A DNA stretch of 64,000 nt, taken from an uncultured Candidatus Saccharibacteria bacterium. GTDB lineage: Bacteria > Patescibacteriota > WWE3 > UBA101185 > UBA10185. A program made the translations under genes and the position numbers. Numbering within the stretch: the stretch's first letter is position 1; each line of letters begins with the position of its first letter. Location of the stretch: positions 234,503 to 298,502 of the forward strand of contig CAZEBU010000001.1 in assembly GCA_964510435.1 (NCBI GenBank), given 5' to 3'. The notes below the pieces were generated by a model, which was not told the origin of the DNA, did no database searches, and worked only from the letters and a program-made list of their open reading frames with translations. Shown here piece by piece: positions 3,463 to 28,523 of this stretch.

Positions 3463-5340
3463 TTATGGCAAATCAAGCTCGAATACTTTACTGCCGCTGA
3501 GAAGGAACATTTTTGTTTCGTTGGAGTTGACACTGATGCTTCTAATGTCGTTCCAATCTGCATCCTTTTCTGCCTTGAGTTGCCTAACGAGTTTACCTTC
3601 TGTAGTTAAAACTAAAACCCTGCTATTTCCCTTATCAGCTACATAAATATTATCAAAGGCAGTGCTGGTGATAATATCTGAGGGATTGCTAAGAGGCTTA
3701 TCCAAACCGCTAATTTCGAAATCAGTCTTTTCTCCCTGTGTAAAAACAGACAACGTGCCGTCACCGGAAATGAGATAGACGCTGTAGGAAATACTTATGG
3801 CTTTGGCATTAGAAAACTCTGCGCCTTCGCCCCAGGTGGAACTGGTAAGCTCATCCCCGGAGGTAACGTACTTAACAAGCGTAGCCCCTTCGGAAGAATA
3901 AATGTTGCCCAGATATCTACCAGATGTACCAAAATCACCCGCGTAAGATTCGGAGACTGTCTTATTGATAAGATCGTAAGCTTTATAACCTGCATCATCA
4001 GCAAAGTTAAGCTTGCCGTCATAATTTACCGCACTCTTTATGCCGGGGAATGTATTTTCCAAAGCGGTAAATTTAGGGGTGTCCAGATCCGAGGTGAATA
4101 TTTTTCCTGAGGTAGTGTCTGTTACCACGACCGTGTTGTTGAAGAGGGCAATATCGGTGGGATTAGCAGTTTCGTCGGCCAGTTTAATATCATAAAAAGG
4201 CTGTGCGGCTACTCTCTCCAAACTATCGGGTTCCTCCTTTTCAGGTACAGGGGGCACCGGCTCTTCTAGTTGCTTTTCAGGTTGAGGCTGCTTTTTAGGG
4301 GTTTCCGATTCCGGTTTATTGAATTCTTTAGGAACAGTAAGTGTGGTAGTGTCCCCCTCTTCTTGCTCGCCGGTTTGTATCTGCTCGTCTTTGTCTCCGC
4401 GATTTCTCAATATTATCGTGGCTCCCATGGAAATACCCAACAACAAAAGAACAACGACCAGCAAAGATTTGGAAGTTATCTTATATCTTGGTCCCATGTG
4501 TGATTTGAGTTTAATATTTGGTGGATTGTTTTGTTTTTCCGTAGGTGCATCACCAACGGCACCTGCCAGTGTAGCTATTGGTTTGTCTTTAGTCTCCTTT
4601 TTGGCAGTCATTTTTTTAATTCCCTCCAACATTGATGACACTTTGGGCATTTTCTTATCCTTCTTTAAACTGAAATCTATCACTTCGTCTTCCGTAAACT
4701 CTGTGTCCACCATAAATTTTAATATCATGCACGACTGGTTATGTTCAAGGTCGTTCGAAGATAAGGAAGTATCTAGTAGTTTATCAGGTGGATATTTATT
4801 AGAAAAGTTTTCCGAACATAAAACAATAACATCATCATCTTTAACCACCCCGGAGGCCACGGAGAAATTCCCTTCTGAAGTTGAACTTACCTTATTGATC
4901 TCCCCTTCCCGCATGAGAAAACTTTTGGCGTTACCATACTGCACTATATAAAGAACATTTCCCCACAACACGCCCGCCAAGATATTAAAAGTTACTTTTT
5001 GATCTGAGACCGGTTGTTTTCCTTTTACGGTTTGTTCCTGTACAGCAAGGTTGGTAATTTTTTCGTTAATATCAACGATAGCCTTTTCCAGAGATTGTAT
5101 AGGTGAAATATTGTCCGAATGATAGTAGGAGTCAAACAAAACATCATTGATCACTTTGCAAATAAGCGAAACGTTAAGTTCCACGGGGCTATTGATATCA
5201 AAGACAGTATAAACACTACCCTTTTTTAAAATTAGATCACGTTCGGTAGGCTCTATGGCTAAACTAGTAGAAAAGCCGGTTTCGTTTTCGGTAAGGATGG
5301 GCACAAGTTTTTGGATTTTTGCAGTCAGTTTTTTGTTCAT
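3463..5340 (-). CDS. Bitopic membrane protein: N-terminal cytoplasmic PP2C/SpoIIE-like (possibly degenerate) domain, one TM helix, Pro/Glu-rich linker, C-terminal beta-propeller-like (NHL-type) repeats
   Basis: N-terminal region resembles the PP2C fold (e.g. FNILAGVLWGNVLYIVQYGNAKSFLMREGEINKV, DDDVIVLCSENF) but lacks the clear DGxGG metal motif. One hydrophobic helix LLVVVLLLLGISMGATIIL. C-terminal repeated motifs such as NIYVADKGNSRVLVL. Confidence 0.5.
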   Translation of the reverse strand: MNKKLTAKIQKLVPILTENETGFSTSLAIEPTERDLILKKGSVYTVFDINSPVELNVSLICKVINDVLFDSYYHSDNISPIQSLEKAIVDINEKITNLAVQEQTVKGKQPVSDQKVTFNILAGVLWGNVLYIVQYGNAKSFLMREGEINKVSSTSEGNFSVASGVVKDDDVIVLCSENFSNKYPPDKLLDTSLSSNDLEHNQSCMILKFMVDTEFTEDEVIDFSLKKDKKMPKVSSMLEGIKKMTAKKETKDKPIATLAGAVGDAPTEKQNNPPNIKLKSHMGPRYKITSKSLLVVVLLLLGISMGATIILRNRGDKDEQIQTGEQEEGDTTTLTVPKEFNKPESETPKKQPQPEKQLEEPVPPVPEKEEPDSLERVAAQPFYDIKLADETANPTDIALFNNTVVVTDTTSGKIFTSDLDTPKFTALENTFPGIKSAVNYDGKLNFADDAGYKAYDLINKTVSESYAGDFGTSGRYLGNIYSSEGATLVKYVTSGDELTSSTWGEGAEFSNAKAISISYSVYLISGDGTLSVFTQGEKTDFEISGLDKPLSNPSDIITSTAFDNIYVADKGNSRVLVLTTEGKLVRQLKAEKDADWNDIRSISVNSNETKMFLLSGSKVFELDLP

Positions 5341-5341
5341 C

Positions 5342-5581
5342 TTAGAATATGGTTATTATTGTAAACAAAAACAAGAACAAAGTCGCGAAAAAGTGCCCGT
5401 AAGAAAGACGAACTAATAGAGGAGCCACATCAGTTTGGAAACTTTTGTTAAGCAGCCTAACCTGCCTCACCATTAAAAAGGCAAAGATCAGATAAAAGAA
5501 TAAGACGAAAGCGATAAACAGCTGTACGATCAATCCTAGAGCAATGGCGCTGTTTAGTGTGTTAATAAAATCAATTTCCAT
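5342..5581 (-). CDS. Small hydrophobic membrane protein
   Basis: 79 aa with two predicted TM helices. Immediately downstream of and overlapping the 5571..6158 ORF. Confidence 0.35.
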   Translation of the reverse strand: MEIDFINTLNSAIALGLIVQLFIAFVLFFYLIFAFLMVRQVRLLNKSFQTDVAPLLVRLSYGHFFATLFLFLFTIITIF

Positions 5582-6158
5582 ATAATCCTTTCACTTCCGA
5601 AACCAGATCAGACAAGATATCCTGCAGCTTTCCCGGATCGGAAACACTATAAAATTCGATCTCTCTTCTTTCTGCTGCTGTTTGTATGGAAACGTTGCCA
5701 AAGTTGAAAAGAGTTTCCAGGGCACCGCTCACAGTATAAGTTATATCCTCAATATTTCTTAGGGGTGCTTCGGAAATGTTCCTATGCAGCAGGTGGTCAA
5801 AGTCCATGTCAACCACCCGTTTGTTAGTAACAATGTAAACATTGAAGAACCAGTTTAGAAATCTTTCGAACATATAACCGAAAGTAAAAATATACCAAAA
5901 GGCATTGACAATAAAGACCAGCACCAGCGAGAGTAAGTTAGGATAAGAATTGTTAAAGGAGGCTATGAACGCGTTGAAAAATAATGGTGCCAACAGCAAA
6001 CCGATGGAGGAAACAATCCAGCCAACATTTGTGATCAAGGCTTTTCTAAAGACATACAAAATTTCCTCGTCCCCATCCTCGCCCTCAAAGTATGTTTTGT
6101 CTGGTTTCTCAAGTACGGAGTTAGTTAGTATGTCTAACATGCTGATATTATATCTCAC
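5571..6158 (-). CDS. Membrane protein with two TM helices followed by a bacterial PH-like (bPH_2/DUF304-like) domain
   Basis: Two N-terminal TM helices followed by a ~100-aa soluble domain. The architecture is typical of YdbS/YdbT-like proteins. Confidence 0.4.
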   Translation of the reverse strand: MRYNISMLDILTNSVLEKPDKTYFEGEDGDEEILYVFRKALITNVGWIVSSIGLLLAPLFFNAFIASFNNSYPNLLSLVLVFIVNAFWYIFTFGYMFERFLNWFFNVYIVTNKRVVDMDFDHLLHRNISEAPLRNIEDITYTVSGALETLFNFGNVSIQTAAERREIEFYSVSDPGKLQDILSDLVSEVKGLYGN

Positions 6159-6215: not shown

Positions 6216-8042
6216 CTATTCCTTTTCGAAATCGAAGAGGCGGCTTCTGATGGCTACATATGAGGGTGCTCTAAGATTGAAGACCGTTTTAAAGGTTTGT
6301 CCGTCTATTTTAACTGTACCGTTATCGGTCTCTAATTCTACCTGTGAGGTATAACCGCCGTTACTGACATCTACACTGATGCTTTTGACCTTTTTGTAGC
6401 TCTTACCGTATTTATTGGCTTTGTCACGCATTTTGTCTAGTGAGTAAGGGTCTCCGCCCCAGCAGCTGGTAGTCACCGGCGTGATACGATCCTTTTCGCT
6501 GCCGGAGCCTTTTGTCCAGACTACCCAGGCATTTACGATATCCGCCATTTCTTCTTCGGTGAGCCAAGGATGGGATCTACCGCAGTTGCTATTGTCATTG
6601 TAGCTTTTGGTATACCAGGCTTTTCTAAACCAAGGGCTGCCGCCTTCTTTTTCATAAGCATCCTCAGGCCAGCACGAAGAGCCACCGCATTTTGTGTCCC
6701 AACCAACGTTATTAATATAACCTCCGGTAGTGGAGGAATACCATCCATAACCGGAAGCATCGGTGCTGCCGTCGATGATCTTGTTTTTTGTATCTTTGAC
6801 TGCGTCCTTCCATCTACCCGGGGGATCATCGCTTTTACTCTTTAGGAATACCTGACAGTTTTGTGTTGTACAAATACAGAGACCTTTTTTGGCAAACCTG
6901 TAGGCATAAGATCTGCCAGCCACCGCCTGTGCTTTCAAGGCGTCTGAATCCCAGCTGCTAGGCATCTCGGCCAAACCATAGAGGTATTTCTGGTAGTCCA
7001 TCTCGCCGTAGCCTTCCACGCAGATCTTGCTAGGAAAATCATCCTTTTCTTTTACATCTTCCTCATAATAAAACTCAATAATGTCTTTATAACCTTTACC
7101 CTTTTCCGCCCTGCCTCTAGCTCCATACTGACTCATTCCTTTATAGTGCGTGTACGCTCCGTAACTAAAGGCGGCAAAAGCAGGGTCAAAAGGAGGATCC
7201 GGGGTCTTAGCTTCGGAGGGTTCATATTCTCCCACACTACCGCTTTCCGTACCGTATTTTTGGTTTAAAATAGCTTGTTGTTTAGAGGAGAGCTCGGCGA
7301 TTTCCTGCTCCAGGTCAAAGAGTTCCTCTTCGTAATCTTCCTCTTCCTCTTCCAAGTTACTGAACTCATTTTGTGCCGAAGCTTTTTTACTATCTACATC
7401 AGCTTTTAGAGATAACAAACTGTTTTGTGTACCTTCCAGCTCGGATATGATAGTTTCCGCTTCCAGCCTGTCTGTTTCAAAGGTGTTGATCTCTGAATTC
7501 AACAAGTAGATCCATTGTAAAGCGTCGTCAGTGAGGGATTTATTAAATATGTAAGAGAAAGATGAATACTGGAATCCGGTGAGATTAGTACCAAAGGGAT
7601 TGAAGGCAAAAAATATTTCCAGGTCGCTCTTAAATCTTTTTTTGGAATAATTTCTGATAACTTTGTTTCTAAAATCAATCTTTTCTGCCAGCTTACCGCG
7701 GCGATCACTGAGGTTTTCGTTGATGATGTTTAGCTCTTCGCTGATAAAGTTAATTTCGCTTTGCAGCTCGTCAATTTGTGCTTGTGTCACATTTAGTTCC
7801 GAAAGGTACTGGTTTATGGTGGCTTCAATGTTGTCCATTTTGCCTCTAATATCGCCTAGCTTATTTGAGGTGGACTCGTATTTTTCTTGTTTGTCTTCGA
7901 TCTTATTGGCGTAGCAGTCTGCTCTGTCATCTAGATCTTGGATCTCCGAGCATCCCCCAACAACCGGTTTGGGTACAAGAGCCAGCAGGAAAGCCAGAGA
8001 TACTATGAGGAGAGATGTTTTAAACAGGTTCCTTGCGGGCAT
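6216..8042 (-). CDS. Secreted coiled-coil protein with C-terminal SpoIID/LytB-like domain (peptidoglycan remodelling)
   Basis: N-terminal signal peptide and a long heptad-rich coiled-coil region. C-terminal AQAVAGRSYAYRFAKKGLCICTTQNCQVF matches the SpoIID family motif (AQAVAARTYA...CDTTxCQVY). Confidence 0.6.
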   Translation of the reverse strand: MPARNLFKTSLLIVSLAFLLALVPKPVVGGCSEIQDLDDRADCYANKIEDKQEKYESTSNKLGDIRGKMDNIEATINQYLSELNVTQAQIDELQSEINFISEELNIINENLSDRRGKLAEKIDFRNKVIRNYSKKRFKSDLEIFFAFNPFGTNLTGFQYSSFSYIFNKSLTDDALQWIYLLNSEINTFETDRLEAETIISELEGTQNSLLSLKADVDSKKASAQNEFSNLEEEEEDYEEELFDLEQEIAELSSKQQAILNQKYGTESGSVGEYEPSEAKTPDPPFDPAFAAFSYGAYTHYKGMSQYGARGRAEKGKGYKDIIEFYYEEDVKEKDDFPSKICVEGYGEMDYQKYLYGLAEMPSSWDSDALKAQAVAGRSYAYRFAKKGLCICTTQNCQVFLKSKSDDPPGRWKDAVKDTKNKIIDGSTDASGYGWYSSTTGGYINNVGWDTKCGGSSCWPEDAYEKEGGSPWFRKAWYTKSYNDNSNCGRSHPWLTEEEMADIVNAWVVWTKGSGSEKDRITPVTTSCWGGDPYSLDKMRDKANKYGKSYKKVKSISVDVSNGGYTSQVELETDNGTVKIDGQTFKTVFNLRAPSYVAIRSRLFDFEKE

Positions 8043-9913: not shown

Positions 9914-10552
9914 TTAATATGCGTAGTGGGGGGGTATAAAATACTCATCCTCTAAAATATTCCCCCAAAGTTGCATAAATTCATCCGCACTCATGGGTGT
10001 AAAATATGACTCTTGGTAAACAACCTGTGTGGTATCGAAGACGTTAAACCAAACCCCCTCATCCAGGTAAATATGGGCTTTTTCGTAAAAACCGTTTTTA
10101 TCGTATTTAATTATGTCAGGCTCGTCCAACTCCAAACGCTCTTTATAGGAGGAGAAAGGCAAAGCTTCATCATAGGATATAGGAATTCTCACAAACGCAA
10201 CTTTACCGTCTTTATCGACACCAATCTGGTGTTCCCTGACACCTGTCTTCGCGTCTCTGTGTACATAGAGAACCAACCCTTTGAAAGATCTTGAGGTAAG
10301 GAGTTTGCCGAATTTATCTTTGATATTCTCGTAGCTTGTTTTTCCTGGAGTAATACCATTCCAGGTATTTACTCTGTTTTCGGGTTTTACGTTATAGACA
10401 TCTGGAGAACCCAATTCCGGTTTTTCTGATTTAGGAATGCGTATACGTCCAAGGAATAAAATTATAATTCCTGCAACTAACCCAAAAACAAATATGAGAA
10501 AAAGTTTGTTTTCGAAAATAGTTTTTATAATAACCTTTAATTTATTTAGCAT
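9914..10552 (-). CDS. Bitopic membrane protein (N-terminal TM anchor + ~180-aa extracytoplasmic domain); speculative VirB8-like position
   Basis: A single N-terminal TM helix, LFLIFVFGLVAGIIILFLG. Sits 6 nt downstream of the 1075-aa gene on the same strand, so the two are probably co-transcribed. Confidence 0.45.
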   Translation of the reverse strand: MLNKLKVIIKTIFENKLFLIFVFGLVAGIIILFLGRIRIPKSEKPELGSPDVYNVKPENRVNTWNGITPGKTSYENIKDKFGKLLTSRSFKGLVLYVHRDAKTGVREHQIGVDKDGKVAFVRIPISYDEALPFSSYKERLELDEPDIIKYDKNGFYEKAHIYLDEGVWFNVFDTTQVVYQESYFTPMSADEFMQLWGNILEDEYFIPPHYAY

Positions 10553-10558
10553 ATTATT

Positions 10559-13500
10559 TTATGGTCCAAACAAAAAACTACTTGTAGCAAAATTATAATG
10601 TCCTTCGAAACAGGTAGGACAATATGTACCGTAGCTGTGCCAAAATTCGCTGGGAGAGACATTGGTGCATTGACCGCTTAGCACATGGTATTGTCCCACA
10701 GTCTCAGCAAAATCTTCGCTATTATTGTTACTTGTACTGCATTGGTTACCGGTGGGTCCTACGTATGTAGGTAATGTATAGCCGCTGTCATTTGACTGAG
10801 CTGTACCTAGGGCTCCCATGCCGTAGCGCATAGCATAGACATGTCCTGTTTCGTGGGCGAATAACCAATTGAAAAGAAGCTGGTTAGCGGAGTTGTATGT
10901 CCAACAACGGCCATCACCAAACTCTATTCTATTTAAACCTCTAGCCCAACCGCACCCAGCACCTCGATTCCAAGCAATTTCTATAGGACCGGCAGCGCAG
11001 AGTCTATCTACATAGCGACCACGAGTACCTGCTAGGCCGCCAGCGGCAGATTGTATGATGGAAAGTGCTTGTGGACCCTCTCCGGAATCCCACCCCTCAA
11101 GAAATTCAAAACAACCAACTGTACTTATTACTTCGCATTCTTCAGGAGGGCAGACTATGGGAGGGCCTGCAGCAGGACCACCTCCAAAATCCTTTCCAGC
11201 AGCCATTCTTGTGGGATCAACCGGAGTAATGGCTGTGAGAATGAAGATGAAAACTACCATCACTGGTATAACAACTACTAGACCAAAACAACCCATGACA
11301 TATCCCGCCAGTTTGAAAACTGCTTGAGCACTTTTTTCTACATATTTTTCTATAGCATCGAATTTAGCCTCTTTAATGGCTTTAAGCGTTGCAGCTGCAA
11401 AATCCATTGCTTTTTTGATCACATATTGCACTACCTTCTCGATGAGGGGGATCAACACGGTACCTATTCCTGATGTTCCGGCGGCGACAGCCGCACCGAC
11501 AACTTTGGCTAAAACTTTTGATATTGCCTTAGTTGCCATTTTCGACAACCATTTTGAAGCCACATTTCTTGCGTAAGCCACGGGCGCCAGGAATTTAAAA
11601 TATTTAAAGATCTTGCTTTGTATAATGTTGGCTCTCTGAGAAAGTTTATCTAAGATTCCGGCTTTACTTTGTAGGATACTGATAAAGTCTGAGTTTATCT
11701 CAATTTTATCCAAGCCTTTGAACAAGGCTTTGAGTTTCTCAATATTTTCCGGACTGTTTATTAAATACCCATTTGCATCGAATTTCAAACCCAGTTGCTT
11801 GTTGTGCTTCATAAGCCATTTTCTGAGGCTCTTTGCTCTTTGCTTCACGTCCTCTAATTCCTTAAAACCGTCATAATAAGATACTTTGTAAGCGACGCCG
11901 GGTCCGGTTTTGCCGTTAAGTAATTGTATAAAGCTCTTACCAGTCAAATGCAGTGCGTCTGATTTATCCAATGTGGTTCTGTCATTAAGACCAGTTCCAA
12001 GCTGAATATTAAAATTACCTGTAAATTTAAATTTACCCACGCCTTCTATATTGTGGGTTTGCCTATTAGCAAAAAGCCTAGTGCCCATTATTCCGTTGAA
12101 GAATTTTGATGATTTTACAGCGTCGTCACCCGGCACGCCGTCTTCTACGGAGTATCTCGAGTCGTATAATAGTCCAAAATAATGTCTTCTTTTTAGTTTT
12201 TCTTTTAAAAAACGCGCAGGTGTAAAACCATTTAATCGTTCCCTGAAAAGGACCCAAAATTGATCAGCTGCTATGTGCAATAGGCCGTCATTTTCAAGTC
12301 TATCTATGAGATCGTAAAAATCCTCCCTTTTATAGGTTCTTAGAGCCTCCTCCATAACATTGGCTAAGTTCTTAGTACCAACTATTTTGTCGTTACTGAA
12401 TATTACTTTGGTCAATGGGCTATTTAAAAGATGGGTTTCGACAAACTTTCTGTTCATTCGATCGAGGCTTCCCTTGACTTGGCCTTCCCTAGCGTATTTC
12501 TTTTGTAATAAACCAATTTTTCCACTGAGATTTCTAGCTTGGGTCTCACCGGTAATTTTTTCGTCTTTTAGCTTATCTAGATCTTTGAGGAGATTTCTTA
12601 ACGGTTTTGTATCTTTAACAAACTCATCAAGAGTATTACCACCTAATTCTATAAACCAATTATCCATTTCCTCTAAAGCCACATTTATCTTTGTGATATT
12701 CTCAACAACCCTTCCCAAGCGCTTATTTGCATCATCTATTGTGGCCGCACCATAAGTGTAAGCACTCAACTCTTTTGTCAAACCTGCTAATCCATAACCA
12801 ATGCCCTCACCATAAAGTGTTTCACCTGCCTTCTTTTGCGCATCCGTCAGTACACGGTCACTGGCGAATTTATAGGTGTTTATATCGCTACTCGAGATGC
12901 CCTGCAAAGCATTAGCCATTCTAATTGCCCTGGCTCGGTGTAGATAGGATTTGACAATTTCTACCTCTTTAGGATCACTTATATCCCCGCTATCAATCAG
13001 CTGAGTTAGTTCTGCCGAACTAGCTAGCGCCGCGGCGTTAATGAGCTTTCTGTAAGCCTTGTTTCTTGTACCCGAGGCTCGGACGGCTTGCATGTAGCTT
13101 AGGAAGGCACCGCCCGATTTTGCAAAAAGATCGGTTTCTGTTTCCGTAAATTCCTTAGTTTCCTTACCACCTACCTGTTCCTGGTAAAGAAGCCCAACTG
13201 ACACTTTAGCTTTAGGAATATCTAAACCCTTGAGTTGGAATGGCCTAAATTTAGTAGTCGCGCTTTCATCAAGGTGCTCGCCATATACCTTGCTTACGAT
13301 ACCTGGTATTGGTTTAATTTCACCTCCGCTCAGGAGAGGTTTCCACATAGCCGATTGCTCCATATAGGAATCAAAGTCTTTCCAGTTAGCAAAATCCTTT
13401 ACAAATCTATCTACGGTGTCTTTGGCCATTTCACCTGGGTTTCTCAGCCACTTGACAGGATTTATGTCTAATTCAAGCTGTACACCGGCAACATCTTCTT

Positions 13501-13786
13501 CATCACCAAGTTCTAGCGCACGCATAGGGTCGTAAGACACGCCTTTTGGTTTTGTTTGGGCAATTAAAGTTCTTTCCACATCGTCAATAAAGAACTTTTT
13601 AGCTTGATTACCAATGGTTAATTTATCCAGCTCTTTTCTAACCGCAAACAAGTACTTTTCGATCAAAGCATCCGTATTAAATTCGACCATATCAGGGGGT
13701 CTACTATAAGGAGGTCTTTTTCTAGGAATAGGCTTGCCAGGATAGTATCCGCCAAGAAGTTCGTAAAAAGGGTTTGAGTCAGGCAT
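10559..13786 (-). CDS. Large membrane protein: ~730-aa N-terminal domain without signal peptide, two central hydrophobic helices, C-terminal Cys/Gly-rich domain with HExxH zincin-like motif
   Basis: AHETGHVYAM motif in the C-terminal domain. Strongly hydrophobic segment GLVVVIPVMVVFIFILTAITPV. No Walker A motif was found. Confidence 0.5.
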   Translation of the reverse strand: MPDSNPFYELLGGYYPGKPIPRKRPPYSRPPDMVEFNTDALIEKYLFAVRKELDKLTIGNQAKKFFIDDVERTLIAQTKPKGVSYDPMRALELGDEEDVAGVQLELDINPVKWLRNPGEMAKDTVDRFVKDFANWKDFDSYMEQSAMWKPLLSGGEIKPIPGIVSKVYGEHLDESATTKFRPFQLKGLDIPKAKVSVGLLYQEQVGGKETKEFTETETDLFAKSGGAFLSYMQAVRASGTRNKAYRKLINAAALASSAELTQLIDSGDISDPKEVEIVKSYLHRARAIRMANALQGISSSDINTYKFASDRVLTDAQKKAGETLYGEGIGYGLAGLTKELSAYTYGAATIDDANKRLGRVVENITKINVALEEMDNWFIELGGNTLDEFVKDTKPLRNLLKDLDKLKDEKITGETQARNLSGKIGLLQKKYAREGQVKGSLDRMNRKFVETHLLNSPLTKVIFSNDKIVGTKNLANVMEEALRTYKREDFYDLIDRLENDGLLHIAADQFWVLFRERLNGFTPARFLKEKLKRRHYFGLLYDSRYSVEDGVPGDDAVKSSKFFNGIMGTRLFANRQTHNIEGVGKFKFTGNFNIQLGTGLNDRTTLDKSDALHLTGKSFIQLLNGKTGPGVAYKVSYYDGFKELEDVKQRAKSLRKWLMKHNKQLGLKFDANGYLINSPENIEKLKALFKGLDKIEINSDFISILQSKAGILDKLSQRANIIQSKIFKYFKFLAPVAYARNVASKWLSKMATKAISKVLAKVVGAAVAAGTSGIGTVLIPLIEKVVQYVIKKAMDFAAATLKAIKEAKFDAIEKYVEKSAQAVFKLAGYVMGCFGLVVVIPVMVVFIFILTAITPVDPTRMAAGKDFGGGPAAGPPIVCPPEECEVISTVGCFEFLEGWDSGEGPQALSIIQSAAGGLAGTRGRYVDRLCAAGPIEIAWNRGAGCGWARGLNRIEFGDGRCWTYNSANQLLFNWLFAHETGHVYAMRYGMGALGTAQSNDSGYTLPTYVGPTGNQCSTSNNNSEDFAETVGQYHVLSGQCTNVSPSEFWHSYGTYCPTCFEGHYNFATSSFLFGP

Positions 13787-13813
13787 ACGTTTATTTTATA
13801 ATAGATTTATAGT

Positions 13814-15247
13814 ATGAGAAAGGAAACCCTGCTTGATAGAAAAATAGTTCTTAAATTAGCTACATTCTTATTTGTCGGCTTTTTGTTCCTTGGATTATCA
13901 CCAAAAGCGCATGCAGGGGTGTGCGATGAACAACCCCCAAAATTTAGATTTGATATCATGATTGCCTGCAAACTTAAGGAGATTAATCCCCTGGTCTCTA
14001 TTCAGAGAACAATCAACGACGCGGCAACTACCATACTCACTAATGTTTTAGCCTCCATAGTTTTTAATAGTAATCCTGATGATCTGGGGACGTGCGGCGT
14101 TGCTATGTTGGCGGATCGAATAGACACTCTTCCCGGAGTGAATATGACGGACATTACTGATCAAAATGGAGTTTTGTTTAGTGCTGCGGAAGTGCAGGAT
14201 GCTCGTGATGCAGCCCCGGCCATCGGCTGTGATTTTAACGACACCCTTTTCGGGTCAAGGGCTAACGGCAGTTTGATGGGAGTAACTAAATTTGCTTTTA
14301 ACACGGTAACAACAGAGCAGCCTCCGATTAATTTGGCTTATTATTTCAAGCACAATTTGCAGAAGGTACCCATTATCAGTGATACAGCTTATGCACAAAC
14401 AGTGAGCTATAACGCCTGGGGATTGGAATTTGCTATCCAGATTTGGGAAAAATCACGCAACATTGCCTACGCCATGATGTCGGTTATCATGCTTGTCATA
14501 GGCATCCTTATTATTACCAGGAAAAAAATAAACCCCCAGACTGTAGTTTCTGTACAAACGGCTCTACCCAGGATAGTGATCAGCCTTATTCTTATTACTT
14601 TTAGCTATCCTATCGGGGCCATCTTAATATCCATAGGTTACGCCTTGGTAGTCGTTGTTATCAGGTTGTTTTTTGGAACTATTATAGATGATGTATCCCA
14701 GTTGGCGGATATGGATGTGCTGGTAATGATGGTTACTATTATGGCAGCTACTATTGGACCTCAAGGAGTAATAGGAGTAGTGACGGCAATGCTAATGGCT
14801 GTTTTGACCATCATAGCTTTGCTAGTGGCTATTATTAAGATTATAATTATTAATCTAAAGGTTCTTATTGCTATAATTTTTGCACCTATTCAGTTTGCTA
14901 TCGCAGCCATCCCGGGGCAGGAGGACCTGGTGCAGGATTGGTTTAAGAAGATGCTCGCCAAAGTGTTAGCTATTCCTGCCATATTCTTTATGATTGCCCT
15001 AGCTTGGTATATGCTCATTGTGCCCTTTACCAATCCAGATTTCTTTACCAGCATACTCGTACAATCCACTGACCCGATAAGTATTGGATATACCCTGATC
15101 AGAGGAGCAAGGGCGGTTGGTTCCAGAATGATCACTATTATGTTGCTTCCCCTTATGACCATTATGACTATGTTTTTTGCTTTGAAAGCGGATAAAGTAG
15201 TGGAAGAGTTTATTATGGGCGGTAGAGGTAAACCTAAAAGAAGATAG
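13814..15247 (+). CDS. Polytopic membrane protein with signal peptide and N-terminal extracytoplasmic domain, VirB6/TrbL-like architecture
   Basis: Signal peptide followed by a ~200-aa soluble region. At least five long hydrophobic helices in the C-terminal half. Divergent from the 1075-aa gene with only a 27-nt gap. Confidence 0.45.
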   Translation: MRKETLLDRKIVLKLATFLFVGFLFLGLSPKAHAGVCDEQPPKFRFDIMIACKLKEINPLVSIQRTINDAATTILTNVLASIVFNSNPDDLGTCGVAMLADRIDTLPGVNMTDITDQNGVLFSAAEVQDARDAAPAIGCDFNDTLFGSRANGSLMGVTKFAFNTVTTEQPPINLAYYFKHNLQKVPIISDTAYAQTVSYNAWGLEFAIQIWEKSRNIAYAMMSVIMLVIGILIITRKKINPQTVVSVQTALPRIVISLILITFSYPIGAILISIGYALVVVVIRLFFGTIIDDVSQLADMDVLVMMVTIMAATIGPQGVIGVVTAMLMAVLTIIALLVAIIKIIIINLKVLIAIIFAPIQFAIAAIPGQEDLVQDWFKKMLAKVLAIPAIFFMIALAWYMLIVPFTNPDFFTSILVQSTDPISIGYTLIRGARAVGSRMITIMLLPLMTIMTMFFALKADKVVEEFIMGGRGKPKRR

Positions 15248-15259
15248 TTAGATAATTAA

Positions 15260-18200
15260 ATGATATGCGCCGTTATGAAATCCAGCAGATTTACCAAGAT
15301 ATTTACGATCCTCCTAGTTTTATTAGGAGTTTCCCTATTTAACAACGTATTTGCACAAGAAGAATGTGACGAAGACGGTTTTATTGTCAATAGCTATTGT
15401 CCTTGTCCCCCTGATCCTGGTATAGCTTCAGTTTGCGGATTTGTGAGTGACGCGAATATTACCCAGGATCTTCCCGATACGGGTATAGAAAGAGCAATCT
15501 GGTCTACCAGAAAACCTGTACCCGGTGTTACCGTGACCATTTATGAAAATAACCCTGATATACCAACAGGTAAGCCGTATGGGAAGCTAGACAGAAAATT
15601 TGGTGCCTGCTACACCACAGAAGAAGAAGGAAAATATCACTGTTTAATGCGGAGACTTAATCCCGGCAACATGGCCTATGTCATTTTTAGCTGTGACGGA
15701 AAAATAGCGGATATGAAGATTATACCCACTGTGAAAAGTTACATAGGACTAGATTCAGATATAGATTGTAGCGGCGAATATAGTTACAATGCCCTAGATG
15801 ATGAGCTAGACTTTGCTGAGAGAAGTAATTTTTTGGGCTGTTTATCAACATCTGATGAAGAGGAAAATGTTAACGCCGGTTTTGAGGAACCGGAGTACAT
15901 CTACAAAAGTGCTGATATTGGTGAGAAGGGTGGAGATATTAGATTCAACCCTTTCACTGGAGTTTTACCCATTGTTGGTGTGCACAACGGTGCCTTTTGG
16001 GAAAAGGATTGTTTGTTCGAATTCACAGGACCGTTAGATTTAAACAGAGAATACGCTCTATTCGGAGGTTTTTTTGGTTTAGCAAACTATGGAAGTGTGT
16101 CAGAAAAGTGTAATTTGGATCCGGACAGAGATGGTGATGGAGCTATAGACGGCGATGATGGAAATCCCCTCAATGATCCTGATGAACTCACAGTGCCGTT
16201 CAGATATGATATTCCAACATTGCAGTTAGAGCACGAGCAGCAGAGGATTTGGGAGACCAGAACTTCCATGCAACGGGAAATACAGGATCCCAGAGCATTT
16301 CAACAGTACAACCATCTCATGTTTGGTGAATGTGTAGGTAGGGCGTTTCTCAGGTATTTTGGCGATGATGATGAAGACCTGCCTATTTCCTGCAGTGAGC
16401 TGGCGGAGTGTAACGAAGCCTTAGGAGATCCTTTTAGGAATACACACACAGCATTGAGTTTAGGATCACGTCTTGAGTTACAAGTTACTTGGGAGGACAT
16501 CTTAGATGCAAATGAAAGGGATCCGGAGGACATAGTTTGCGAAGATGAAGAATTGGGAGAGATTATGATTTCTGAGGTGCAACCACCATTCCCTGATAAC
16601 CCGTGCGAACCGGGAAGCCCGGGGTGCCCATATAAGTTATCAAGAGATTACTATATGCCGCAGTTTTTTGTTGAGGTTGGTGGTGTAAAAAAACCTAAAA
16701 CAGCAGAAACAGCGAATGACGCATATGGAAGTATCCCTAGGAGTTTAGTATGGGAACCTATAAGTACAGAAGCGGAAACTCCCCATGAATCAGGGCACTA
16801 TGTGAATTATGAGGACAAATCTTCGCAGAGGACAAACTCAGGCAGGACAGCTATCAGATTAGCCTCGAAAAGTAATGCTGATCTCGGGGACGTTATGACT
16901 AACAGGTTCGTGAGTTACATAGACGCTGTAGATGAAACTTATGATTATAATTCGGAATCAACAATTTGGGATGCAGGTGGAGATGTTAAAAGCCTATGTA
17001 CCATTTCTAGTGTTAACGATTTGCTTATAATTCCCGACCTGGCTACAGAAACCACAACTTTGGTGAGCAACGAGTTTGTTGGAGATGAAACGGATCATAA
17101 AGAGGACGAAACGGCGGCCTCGTCAACCTATGGTACAAATTGGGGTATGGCAAGAGACGAAGCTATGTCAAACGATTATTTCTGGCGTGATGTGCTTGAT
17201 ACCTTACAAAGGTACTCAAGTGGTGGCGGTGTGCAGCTAGACTTGATGACCGCTTGGGCAATCGTAAGAAACATTGCCTCACGTGGAGCCGGTAATGTTT
17301 ATAAATCGTTCGCAGAAAGAATAGATAACTGGGCACAAGTAGGCTACCCTTCTTATATGAATACGGAATACTGCATTGCCGAAGATACCTTTGAAGCAGC
17401 CTTCCCAGCTTATGGTACAGGAGGTTATCCTGGCGGACACGCTTGCTATCCTTGGATAGATGTGCCCAGTGGGGAAAATTGTGACGCTTGGCCGGGACCT
17501 CCGGGTGAGTGGCCTCCTACTCCAGAGGTGAGTGCGCTAGGTTATAACGCTGGTTCATGGCCAGGTATAGAGGGAGAGCTAAGAACATGCAGAGCTTTAA
17601 ATTGTGAGATAAGAACAAAAACTCGAACTTGCGATGAGGAAATATGCAGGTGGGTTTGGAATTCACGCGCCGGCGTATTTGTTTGGGTGTGCAGTGGTTG
17701 CGGGGATAATAATGGAGATGGGAACGTGGACTCAAACATTGATGATTCTACGAGAGGCTGTAACGACGGTGAGCTTAGGGCCTGTTTAGTTGAGCAAAGA
17801 GATAACTGGGATGAACAGCCTCCAGATCCCCCTCCACTGGATCCCCCTGATTATGATGATGAAAATAGTAGTATACGCGCTTGTGATTTAGAAAAAGCCG
17901 GACCAATGCAAGAGCCGGGTGATATTTGGAAAGACCACTCTGCTAGGATAGTTCAGCAGCCTTTTTTCGGGCAATCTCAAGAAAATGTTGATACGGTGTC
18001 CTTGACCGCTAACTACACGGCACTTTCCCTAACCAGTAAGGTTGAAGAAAGAAGAGAAAGCCATAAGGTTAGTTTTGTAGATTATGCATCCACAAATGAT
18101 ATCAGCGGAGGGGGACCTGCACAGGCCATAGATCCTGATAGGCTTAGGCACAGGAACACCGCAGGCACAAATTCTCAAGGATTTGGTACCGGGGCGGCAG

Positions 18201-18892
18201 TAGATCTACTAAAAACCATTAGCCACCCCGAAAGGTTTGGTTCTCTGGTTGAGCCGTTGCCGGACTGGATTCCAAATTGTAATTTTTATGATCCTAATTC
18301 ATGGTGTTATGCTATTCAACCTCCTGGTCCCATCGATTTAGATAGTTTGGATGGAGGTGCATGTAATCCAAATACTACTCGGGGAGCATGTCCTTTGAAC
18401 GGTTATGTACCCGCTATTGCAGAGAGAATACTAGGTGCCGCCGGAGCTAATTCGGGGGTTGATGGCGCAGTTTTGCTGGCAGCCATATATGGAGAAGGTG
18501 GGTGGATTGGTCCTGGGGCAAGGCTTGATTGGATAGATGCCAACGTCAGAGCCTGGAGCGAACCCTGGTATGCGAGAATACCTGGATGTAACGACATGGT
18601 GCCCACAGCCCAGGGACCTTTTGGTATGATAACCCGTTGGTTTGAAGGTGCGGTAGCTAATGGAGGATACCACCCATCGAGAGTAAGTCCTACCAACGGA
18701 CAGGTTATAGTCAGTAAATGTAACTTTATAGACGCAGCTTATGCTGCGGCACAGATGCTTGGTGGAATAGGATGTAATGGTTTTAGTGCAGCTGATGTAA
18801 GACAGAGATTAGCGGTTTACAGAGGCGGTTCTCAAGCAAATCCGGCAGACGTACCCCAGTTTTTAGTAGACACCGCTATGAACTGCCGCTAA
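15260..18892 (+). CDS. Giant secreted Cys-rich protein with Asp-rich calcium-binding-like repeats (DxDxDGxxD) and a possible C-terminal lysozyme/lytic-transglycosylase-like domain
   Basis: Signal peptide (..NNVFA|QEE). Very many Cys residues. DPDRDGDGAIDGDDGNPLNDPDE resembles thrombospondin-type-3 Ca-binding repeats. The C-terminal region (AIYGEGGW...GPFGMITRWF) is weakly reminiscent of SLT-type motifs. Confidence 0.5.
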   Translation: MICAVMKSSRFTKIFTILLVLLGVSLFNNVFAQEECDEDGFIVNSYCPCPPDPGIASVCGFVSDANITQDLPDTGIERAIWSTRKPVPGVTVTIYENNPDIPTGKPYGKLDRKFGACYTTEEEGKYHCLMRRLNPGNMAYVIFSCDGKIADMKIIPTVKSYIGLDSDIDCSGEYSYNALDDELDFAERSNFLGCLSTSDEEENVNAGFEEPEYIYKSADIGEKGGDIRFNPFTGVLPIVGVHNGAFWEKDCLFEFTGPLDLNREYALFGGFFGLANYGSVSEKCNLDPDRDGDGAIDGDDGNPLNDPDELTVPFRYDIPTLQLEHEQQRIWETRTSMQREIQDPRAFQQYNHLMFGECVGRAFLRYFGDDDEDLPISCSELAECNEALGDPFRNTHTALSLGSRLELQVTWEDILDANERDPEDIVCEDEELGEIMISEVQPPFPDNPCEPGSPGCPYKLSRDYYMPQFFVEVGGVKKPKTAETANDAYGSIPRSLVWEPISTEAETPHESGHYVNYEDKSSQRTNSGRTAIRLASKSNADLGDVMTNRFVSYIDAVDETYDYNSESTIWDAGGDVKSLCTISSVNDLLIIPDLATETTTLVSNEFVGDETDHKEDETAASSTYGTNWGMARDEAMSNDYFWRDVLDTLQRYSSGGGVQLDLMTAWAIVRNIASRGAGNVYKSFAERIDNWAQVGYPSYMNTEYCIAEDTFEAAFPAYGTGGYPGGHACYPWIDVPSGENCDAWPGPPGEWPPTPEVSALGYNAGSWPGIEGELRTCRALNCEIRTKTRTCDEEICRWVWNSRAGVFVWVCSGCGDNNGDGNVDSNIDDSTRGCNDGELRACLVEQRDNWDEQPPDPPPLDPPDYDDENSSIRACDLEKAGPMQEPGDIWKDHSARIVQQPFFGQSQENVDTVSLTANYTALSLTSKVEERRESHKVSFVDYASTNDISGGGPAQAIDPDRLRHRNTAGTNSQGFGTGAAVDLLKTISHPERFGSLVEPLPDWIPNCNFYDPNSWCYAIQPPGPIDLDSLDGGACNPNTTRGACPLNGYVPAIAERILGAAGANSGVDGAVLLAAIYGEGGWIGPGARLDWIDANVRAWSEPWYARIPGCNDMVPTAQGPFGMITRWFEGAVANGGYHPSRVSPTNGQVIVSKCNFIDAAYAAAQMLGGIGCNGFSAADVRQRLAVYRGGSQANPADVPQFLVDTAMNCR

Positions 18893-27854: not shown

Positions 27855-28523
27855 CTAGGGCACCAGTAAATAAAAGATCACATACTGCAGGGGATAAAAA
27901 ACATAAAATAAATATTTTACTCTCGGACCGGGTTTGCCATTGTAAAAAGCCACAAAGAATAGGGAGATAAGTGCAAACGGTTGTATGATAGAAACCATAC
28001 TAAACGCAACTTGCTTAGTTAGTACCAAAATGGGAAGCAATCCAAAATAAATAGCGGATTGCGATAAGAGCATCATTTTAATATCTTCGAAATAGATATA
28101 AAAAGAAATAATGGATAAAACACCCAACATACCATAATCACTATCAATTAGCTGGGCTGTCGCTGAGTAGACCAGAACAGCGATAATTTTTACTAGATTA
28201 CTTTTCCCATCCCTGATCACTTTTATGCCTAGCAGTCCTAAAAACAAGGTAAAAAAAATGTTCAGCTGAGCAAACGAAACATCAATTGATCTAAAGGCAA
28301 TAGTGTAGGGAATTTGCGAGAGCAGAGAAAAGATAAAAAGTCTTTTTAAATAGGCATTGATGTCTTTTGTGTGCTTAGCGCCGTTGGCTATCATCCAGGC
28401 AAAAAGGGGAAAGGAAAGTCTTCCCAGTGCCCTAAGGAAAACTGCTTGAGGAAAAATGAAAACACCAATGTGGTCAATAGCCATAGCTAAAATAGCAATA
28501 ATTTTAATAGTGAAGGTATTCAT
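27855..28523 (-). CDS. TraX-family membrane protein (F-pilin acetylase family)
   Basis: N-terminal IKIIAILAMAIDHIGVF matches the TraX signature (LKxIAxxxMxIDHIG). Multi-pass membrane protein. Confidence 0.6.
   Translation of the reverse strand: MNTFTIKIIAILAMAIDHIGVFIFPQAVFLRALGRLSFPLFAWMIANGAKHTKDINAYLKRLFIFSLLSQIPYTIAFRSIDVSFAQLNIFFTLFLGLLGIKVIRDGKSNLVKIIAVLVYSATAQLIDSDYGMLGVLSIISFYIYFEDIKMMLLSQSAIYFGLLPILVLTKQVAFSMVSIIQPFALISLFFVAFYNGKPGPRVKYLFYVFYPLQYVIFYLLVP

Follow-up and report, generated by a model that had tools for sequence, protein, structure and literature searches.

A predicted membrane-anchored peptidase with an exchangeable outer module, probably a wall-cutting component of a pilus-gene locus in the WWE3 lineage

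The hydrolases that accompany type IV secretion systems (T4SS) in Gram-positive (monoderm) bacteria are usually anchored in the membrane by a transmembrane (TM) segment (PMC11323569). PrgK of pCF10 combines an intracellular N-terminal domain, a TM segment at residues 254-274 and extracellular LytM, SLT/muramidase and CHAP domains, of which the LytM domain is catalytically degenerate (PMC11323569). Patescibacteria depend on other cells: in Saccharibacteria, the T4SS and the pilin array are essential for epibiotic growth (PMC10633639). When Quinonero-Coronel et al. surveyed 3,035 Patescibacteria genomes, VirB1 homologues turned out to be scarce, and the authors proposed that the VirB2 pilus can do without one (PMC12102498). 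Here, we analyze a stretch of 64,000 nucleotides (nt) from an uncultured, ultra-small bacterium of the WWE3 lineage (hereafter, the window, meaning this stretch at its whole length) and, within it, the open reading frame at 10559..13786 on the reverse strand, which encodes a protein of 1075 amino acids (aa; hereafter, the target). The target is probably a wall-cutting component of the pilus-gene locus next to it.

An earlier reading of the bare sequence (the original prediction) described the domain order of the target as unusual. However, because PrgK likewise places an N-domain inside, a TM segment next and hydrolases outside, this order is the already known architecture of PrgK-class T4SS hydrolases (PMC11323569). 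By analogy, the target appears to represent the monoderm type of T4SS-associated wall hydrolase, equipped with an unclassified zincin module. The likeness to PrgK and to TraG of pIP501 includes the leaderless N-domain inside, the single TM segment and the outer hydrolase part (for the target, a prediction only), the repertoire of modules in its family, which overlaps with theirs (LytM/M23, CHAP and, possibly, lysozyme-like), and encoding together with T4SS-type genes, here VirB2-like pilins. The differences lie in the size of the N-domain (~825 aa in the target versus ~250 aa in PrgK), in the single exchangeable module of each family protein as against three in PrgK and two in TraG, in the module itself, an HExxH gluzincin not known in T4SS hydrolases, with no SLT/muramidase, CHAP or LytM domain in the target, and in the position of the gene, which lies beside the pilin array rather than beside virB4.

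Architecture and predicted membrane topology

The target divides into the following segments (window coordinates; pLDDT, the predicted local distance difference test, refers to the AlphaFold2 (AF2) model; KD, Kyte-Doolittle hydropathy).

10559..13786, reverse strand: whole gene, 1075 aa, ATG start, TAA stop; ~300 homologues at E≤1e-3
13694..13786, reverse strand: residues 1-31, Pro/Gly/Tyr-rich N-terminal motif MPDSNPFYELLGGYYPGKPIPRKRPP, conserved and predicted disordered (pLDDT 30-36)
13481..13513, reverse strand: residues 92-102, conserved acidic motif ELGDEEDVAGV
11513..13786, reverse strand: residues 1-758, N-domain, Cys-free, mostly alpha-helical, predicted cytoplasmic
11441..11512, reverse strand: residues 759-782, marginal Ala/Gly-rich hydrophobic segment with a conserved T-G-G-x-G turn
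11312..11440, reverse strand: residues 783-825, basic amphipathic helix ahead of the TM helix, 9 Lys/Arg
11228..11311, reverse strand: residues 826-853, strong predicted TM helix, KD up to 3.0, positive-inside bias
11207..11230, reverse strand: residues 853-860, junction motif ITPVDPTR, beyond which the variable C-terminal modules start
11117..11206, reverse strand: residues 861-890, Gly/Pro-rich linker GGGPAAGPP with the first Cys pair; pLDDT <50 over 846-890
10562..11116, reverse strand: residues 891-1075, Cys-rich metallopeptidase module of predicted gluzincin fold
10841..10855, reverse strand: H978-E-T-G-H982, two predicted zinc ligands and the predicted catalytic base, in the middle of the predicted helix 966-988
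10763..10765, reverse strand: Y1008, present in 32 of 33 modules, candidate transition-state-stabilising Tyr
10703..10717, reverse strand: E1024-D-F-A-E1028; E1024 opens the predicted helix 1022-1038 and is the candidate for the third zinc ligand

That the protein is leaderless, as originally stated, holds for the entire family: hydrophobic segments are missing from the first 60 residues of the target and of all 119 full-length relatives analyzed. Of the two hydrophobic helices that the original prediction placed ahead of the C-terminal region, only one is convincing as a TM helix. Segment 826-853 reaches a KD peak of 3.0 (19-residue window) and has a strong equivalent in every one of these relatives, whereas segment 759-782 peaks at 1.65 and is sub-threshold in most close relatives. 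In these close relatives, K761, T771 and G773 of the weaker segment are conserved, and the AF2 model interrupts its helix, at low confidence, at positions 767-774, where the T-G-G-x-G turn lies. This segment is probably membrane-associated or re-entrant rather than a full TM helix.

The distribution of charges around the strong helix is asymmetric. The 20 residues before the last helix contain a mean of 2.7 Lys plus Arg, compared with 0.9 in the 20 residues after it, and the N-terminal flank is the more basic one in 97 of 125 relatives, with the reverse in 5; in the target, residues 700-758 include 11 Lys/Arg and 2 Asp/Glu as opposed to 2 and 8, respectively, in residues 854-900. The Cys-rich C-terminal region reported originally is there as described, with FAHETGHVYAM at 976-986 and GGGPAAGPP at 867-875: all 11 Cys of the target are located at or after residue 833, ten of them beyond the TM helix, and among the relatives, the median Cys content is 0% in the N-domain versus 2.8% in the tail. 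Given that the background Cys frequency in this genome is only 0.62%, the Cys-rich proteins being neighbours with signal peptides, the Cys-free N-domain carries less weight as a sign of export; zero Cys across 832 residues is only mildly unusual for this genome (P ~0.006). Taken together, the charge bias, the Cys distribution, the reuse of the zincin module on a Sec-exported scaffold (see below) and the CHAP and M23 domains that take its place in relatives support a single-pass membrane protein with the N-terminus in and the C-terminus out, in line with the originally proposed display of a metallopeptidase-like domain on the outside.

The exchangeable slot, predicted to face outward

A first homology search recovered 13 uncharacterised relatives including the target itself, a 37-sequence alignment returned the same 13, and a homology search with a zincin profile gave short fragments only. 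An exhaustive HMMER search with a nine-member full-length profile expanded the family to 302 representatives at E≤1e-3, 104 of them at E≤1e-30. Most relatives are 1000-1500 aa long, with a match to the profile that ends at position ~860-890. We did not find this family of ~300 representatives described in the literature consulted, in which no search was aimed at it, and the models of Pfam, NCBIfam and PHROGs do not detect it.

Within the family, conservation is highest in two stretches, the first ~22 residues (MPDSNPLYxLxGGYYPGxPIPR) and GDEEDVAG. Among the close relatives, N5, P6, Y8, G12, G13, Y15, P16, G17, P19 and P21 are invariant, as are E92, G94, D95, E97, A100 and G101 of the acidic motif, one of the two patterns by which related loci were recovered; conservation of G13, Y15 and G17 persists in 37 diverse members. 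Both stretches are disordered in the AF2 prediction, in the same pLDDT range. Residues 1-31 are a possible docking or recognition peptide, and the N-terminal motif and GDEEDVAG alike may be short linear docking or recognition motifs. At the junction, I853, P855 and D857 are invariant and T854, T859 and R860 nearly so, and past it, the tails diverge.

The tails were analyzed in 156 sequences, of which 149 include the region that spans the TM helix and the junction; 146 tails, with a median length of 228 aa, were extracted, and the 141 of at least 60 aa were classified. The largest class is M23-like (59, plus 1 clear M23), followed by zincin (33), CHAP-like (27) and Peptidase_C39_2 (5), along with two motif-level lysozyme-like classes (4 and 3), a Cys-rich class without assignment (3) and singletons. 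Matches above the Pfam gathering threshold were obtained for CHAP in P0006 (34.6 bits) and P0009 (28.2 bits), for M23 in P0126 (57.8 bits) and for C39_2 in P0082 (34.1 bits). In 59 of 130 members, the nearest relative by N-domain carries a tail of a different class; examples are CHAP in P0006 against zincin in P0003 at 52% N-domain identity, and CHAP in P0110 against M23 in P0126 at 48%. These comparisons show that the slot has been refilled many times; its occupants are recognised or probable cell-wall hydrolase domains in most relatives and modules without a recognised family in some. In two close relatives, the module is truncated or frameshifted: P0010 ends 37 residues past the junction, and P0005 stops after HExxH, which could reflect pseudogenisation or assembly errors on short contigs.

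So frequent an exchange between close relatives invites a reading directed at the host, in which the whole protein or a released C-terminal part would reach the host bacterium by way of the VirB2-like pilus, passing through it or alongside it, and where the swappable hydrolase would open the host wall and the hydrophobic helix would insert into the host membrane, in the service of an episymbiotic lifestyle. Such swapping would be expected if the wall chemistry under attack differs from host to host, and is less readily explained if the enzyme acts on the cell's own, conserved wall. The essential role of T4SS and pilin genes in epibiotic growth of Saccharibacteria (PMC10633639) is in agreement with this view, and so is the fact that the most conserved stretch of the protein is its N-terminus, which is nevertheless predicted to be disordered and so fits a recognition signal. 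Against delivery to the host stand the strong TM helix with its positive-inside bias, which fits ordinary membrane insertion, the only mildly unusual lack of Cys, and the absence of any sign of secretion, so that we consider this reading improbable. Its more specific form, a breaching device in which a Cys-free protein is handed to the pilus machinery via the disordered N-terminal motif and the host-matched enzyme and the helix then open a conduit, seems to us more doubtful yet; if it were true, the module swaps would record host switches.

The same reading draws on a resemblance to phage proteins, and in function, such a device would be comparable to a tape-measure protein or to a translocator. 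Tape-measure proteins are long and helical, with hydrophobic helices in their C-terminal part and a muralytic module that varies (M23, lysozyme-like or CHAP), and the target family, with its long, helical, Cys-free N-domain, late hydrophobic helices and C-terminal M23, CHAP or lysozyme-like module, recalls this layout. However, no similarity in sequence or fold to tape-measure or other phage proteins emerged from PHROGs, from tblastn against phages or from Foldseek against BFVD, which returned nothing at E≤1e-3; tape-measure proteins lead the non-significant BFVD list through helical bias only (TM-scores 0.05-0.1). The target also differs in that no phage genes lie nearby and that the gene holds a fixed position between housekeeping genes, and identity with tape-measure proteins was rejected. 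The frequent module exchange offers a way to test whether the wall-cutting enzymes are adapted to the wall of the partner.

The zincin-type module

The two findings that could have undone the original prediction, an incidental HExxH and hydrophobic segments that are not TM helices, are contradicted by the pronounced hydrophobicity of segment 826-853 described above and by the statistics and conservation of the motif. The target contains one HExxH where 0.009 are expected from its composition, and 173 of 20,000 shuffled sequences carry one. In the nine relatives with an intact tail of the zincin type, H978, E979, H982, Y1008, E1024, D1025, A1027 and six Cys are invariant. In the wider set of 33 modules, which are only 26-41% identical to that of the target, the three HExxH residues are retained in all 33, Y1008 and E1024 in 32 each, A1027 in 31, D1025 in 29 and the six Cys in at least 30, with 35-64 residues separating the second His from the Glu (42 in the target). 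E1024 is thus the candidate for the third zinc ligand that was to be sought downstream of HExxH, and from the conserved residues and the predicted fold, the module is predicted to bind zinc and to be catalytically active; it is, probably, stabilised by disulfides, of which three are predicted. A degenerate, non-catalytic zincin-like domain with a wall-binding or regulatory role, or an incidental motif, could be invoked because the LytM domain of PrgK is degenerate (PMC11323569) and because no curated family or solved homologue anchors an activity, but with the catalytic-type residues kept across such divergent modules, and with so low a chance expectation, this explanation is highly improbable.

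In the predicted structure, H978-E-T-G-H982 lies on helix 966-988, and E1024, 42 residues past H982, opens helix 1022-1038; the predicted module includes the beta-sheet subdomain, the active-site helix and the Glu helix by which a thermolysin-like fold is recognised. A metzincin was considered and rejected: the motif HExxHxxGxxH, which together with a Met-turn marks this group, is absent, since the target reads HETGHVYAMRY, in which A985 occupies the Gly position and Y988 the His position. The best structural matches are the M34 enzymes PPEP-2 and PPEP-3 and lethal factor. At the sequence level, profiles built from 9 and 17 modules produced only sub-threshold zincin matches among PDB sequences, Pfam and NCBIfam; there was no match to ATLF or any other M34-type Pfam family at cut-offs as loose as E≤10 or E≤1, whichever of the two module sets was used, and no PDB sequence match to PPEP or lethal factor. 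One of the 17 modules matches PF13699 (eCIS_core) at E 0.26, and we take this accession to be that of the DUF4157 family. The best PDB sequence match of the module profile is VgrG2b, at E 0.027, which is below significance. Because the HExxH/Tyr/Glu pattern is conserved and no sequence family is significantly matched, the C-terminal module is best described as a putative unclassified gluzincin, nearest in its predicted fold to M34.

The comparison with characterised enzymes is instructive with respect to spacing. In PPEP-3, the corresponding residues are His153, Glu154, His157, the oxyanion Tyr190 and the ligand Glu197, which is part of a Glu tandem (PMC12828418), and in VgrG2b, they are H935, E936, H939 and E983 (PMC6899460); the distance from His to Glu is 40 residues in PPEP-3 and 44 in VgrG2b, compared with 42 in the target. 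By analogy with Tyr190, Y1008 may serve as a transition-state stabiliser, although it precedes the Glu by 16 residues rather than by 7 as in PPEP-3, and the stretch between Y1008 and E1024 is a Cys-containing loop modeled at low confidence. Other differences from the M34/ATLF enzymes (PPEP-1/2/3 and lethal factor) are the sequence identity of only 13-17%, with no match to a family model, the six conserved Cys and the fusion to a membrane-anchored scaffold. VgrG2b of Pseudomonas aeruginosa, whose type of domain is often annotated as DUF4157 (PMC6899460), differs in being a spike effector of a Gram-negative type VI secretion system with a cognate immunity protein, whereas the target is not consistently accompanied by an immunity gene.

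These structural neighbours raise the possibility that the predicted extracellular zincin cleaves proteins, not peptidoglycan, the candidate substrates being the adjacent pilins (in maturation), surface adhesins of the cell itself or of its host, and the Cys-rich 1210-aa protein encoded nearby. The best structural matches are, after all, protein-cleaving enzymes; PPEPs act on cell-surface adhesion proteins (PMC11460543); some relatives of the target carry a C39-like papain-fold peptidase module; and the pilin genes adjoin the target gene. We nevertheless regard protein processing as an unlikely alternative to wall cutting, given that relatives carry known cell-wall hydrolase domains in the same outer position, which makes the target a likely wall hydrolase.

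Proposed envelope cutting at the pilin locus

We favor, with about even confidence, a mechanism in which the peptidase is displayed on the surface, held at the pilus/secretion locus, and makes local cuts in the envelope, while the cytoplasmic domain provides docking or regulation. Under this scenario, the ~825 Cys-free, largely helical residues would stay in the cytoplasm, where they would tether the enzyme to the machine or regulate it there; the single TM helix 826-853 would span the membrane; and the flexible Gly/Pro linker would present the gluzincin (H978, E979, H982, E1024, Y1008) at the cell surface. The targets of cutting would be peptide stems of peptidoglycan, cross-links or wall-attached proteins, and the opening would allow the pilus/secretion apparatus of the locus to assemble or to reach the partner cell. 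We further infer that the peptidase may work together with a glycan-strand enzyme of the SpoIID type, encoded in the same locus.

Several observations weigh against this proposal. To our knowledge, no HExxH gluzincin is established as a peptidoglycan hydrolase, and proteins are the substrates of the closest folds, those of the PPEPs and lethal factor. The N-domain (residues 1-758), three quarters of the protein, is without a recognisable fold or family, and scans of the full target against Pfam, NCBIfam and PHROGs produced nothing meaningful. The topology was derived from simple rules (hydropathy, charge, Cys) rather than with a dedicated predictor, and if segment 759-782 were to span the membrane as well, as it could, the C-terminus would come to lie inside. 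Some of the wall hydrolase assignments in the family are themselves soft: the 59-member class matches M23 only below the threshold (Pfam E 1.4e-4; SpoIIQ E 0.014), and only motifs suggest a lysozyme/SLT-like identity for the P0115-type tail and for the C-terminus of the 1210-aa neighbour, the profile having no PDB match. Neither the 64-kb window nor the 10-kb flanks of the related loci encode a VirB4 or VirD4 ATPase, so that the pilins alone connect the locus with a T4SS, and a tblastn search against 72,556 plasmids gave no match at E≤0.1 to PrgK, TraG, TrsG, CD419 or others.

With this family, a membrane-anchored candidate wall hydrolase comes to lie right beside a pilin array in the WWE3 lineage. 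Because the family escapes the available models, the reported scarcity of VirB1 may reflect sequence divergence rather than real absence. The family further defines an unclassified, Cys-rich putative gluzincin module that shares its slot with CHAP and M23 domains; if this module cleaves peptidoglycan, its chemistry would be unusual for a wall hydrolase. The 825-residue N-domain with its disordered conserved motif makes for a sizeable uncharacterised protein tied to an important machine.

The genomic context is conserved along with the architecture. The pilin array, a divergent gene for a polytopic protein (~430-477 aa) and a SpoIID coiled-coil gene flank the target gene in eight distinct loci that cover four tail classes, and the whole locus sits between SmpB and L25/LeuRS. 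The neighbours in the window are as follows.

6216..8042, reverse strand: 608-aa protein with a signal anchor, a long coiled coil and a SpoIID/LytB domain, conserved across loci at 36-75% identity
8156..9907, forward strand: four VirB2-like pilin genes (PF18895), with orthologues in all loci
9914..10552, reverse strand: 212-aa bitopic protein, with a homologue only in the related locus L011 (64% identity), absent from L001, L003, L004, L005, L009 and L010
13814..15247, forward strand: 477-aa polytopic membrane protein bearing a signal peptide; conserved partner of the family, with a divergently transcribed orthologue alongside in all loci examined
15260..18892, forward strand: 1210-aa Sec-signal, Cys-rich (3.2%) protein, gene found only in the nearer clade

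Each of the four pilin paralogues has its own orthologue in all related loci, the 117-aa one being the most conserved (58-77% identity), which marks the array as old and stable rather than as the product of recent tandem amplification. SpoIID, SpoIIM and SpoIIP form the wall-degrading machine of sporulation; speculatively, the combination of a SpoIID protein, a peptidase and a polytopic membrane protein is reminiscent of that trio. The divergent gene, taken originally for VirB6-like, is indeed polytopic and separated from the target gene by a 27-bp spacer, but the VirB6 label is without support, as neither the 477-aa protein nor any of six orthologues has a VirB6/TrbL match in Pfam, with no PDB match either; the resemblance to VirB6 is one of polytopic topology only. 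The 1210-aa protein constitutes a second scaffold that draws on the same pool of exchangeable C-terminal modules: its C-terminus (residues 1057-1180) matches the P0115-type tails of the target family at E 1e-9, and its homologue P0105 (E 5e-10) ends in a zincin module 36% identical to that of the target (E 6e-21).

The conserved N-terminal region followed by C-terminal domains that vary past a junction motif is the pattern of polymorphic antibacterial toxins, in which a trafficking region would deliver interchangeable toxin domains and the 212-aa protein encoded downstream would confer immunity. The 212-aa gene, originally described as co-transcribed with the target gene, lies on the same strand, 6 nt past its stop codon, but it is lineage-specific, recurring only in the closest relative, and not a conserved partner. 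In the zincin-type loci L001 and L003, nothing is encoded downstream on that strand; because the 212-aa gene is missing there, no cognate immunity gene tracks with the module. No pair of module and immunity gene was found among the called genes of the loci, in which orphan cassettes were not specifically searched for. Furthermore, the gene keeps its place between housekeeping genes in all loci examined, and a membrane anchor with positive-inside bias is atypical of exported toxins. A toxin is, accordingly, very unlikely. The 212-aa gene as a conserved partner or immunity gene was rejected on synteny, and its product is a lineage-specific accessory.

Some minor features of the surroundings are also of note. 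In the 27-bp gap at 13787-13813 between the divergent starts, promoter-like hexamers of the two strands overlap (13774-13802 on the forward and 13820-13793 on the reverse strand), which would imply near-leaderless transcripts; the promoter scan overall was not above chance, with 11 sites versus 15 expected. A 222-aa protein of the TraX family (PF05857, E 2.2e-39) is encoded at 27855-28523 on the reverse strand, ~14 kb from the pilin array; TraX of F-type plasmids acetylates pilin, and by analogy, this protein might modify the VirB2-like pilins. In L009, the locus of a distant member, a 647-aa protein encoded at 14155-16098 on the forward strand ends in a T4SS_pilin domain, with an E value (3.6e-5) that narrowly misses the Pfam threshold, and looks like a pilin fused to a large N-terminal extension. 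On the far side of the SpoIID gene, at 3463-6158 on the reverse strand, genes for a 625-aa NHL-repeat protein and a 195-aa protein with a bacterial PH domain are syntenic with the pilin locus (33-71% identity) in those related loci whose sequence extends to that side, and a small DUF5657 gene is found on the same side in three related loci; the NHL-repeat, PH-domain and DUF5657 genes may belong to the same functional unit as the pilin locus.

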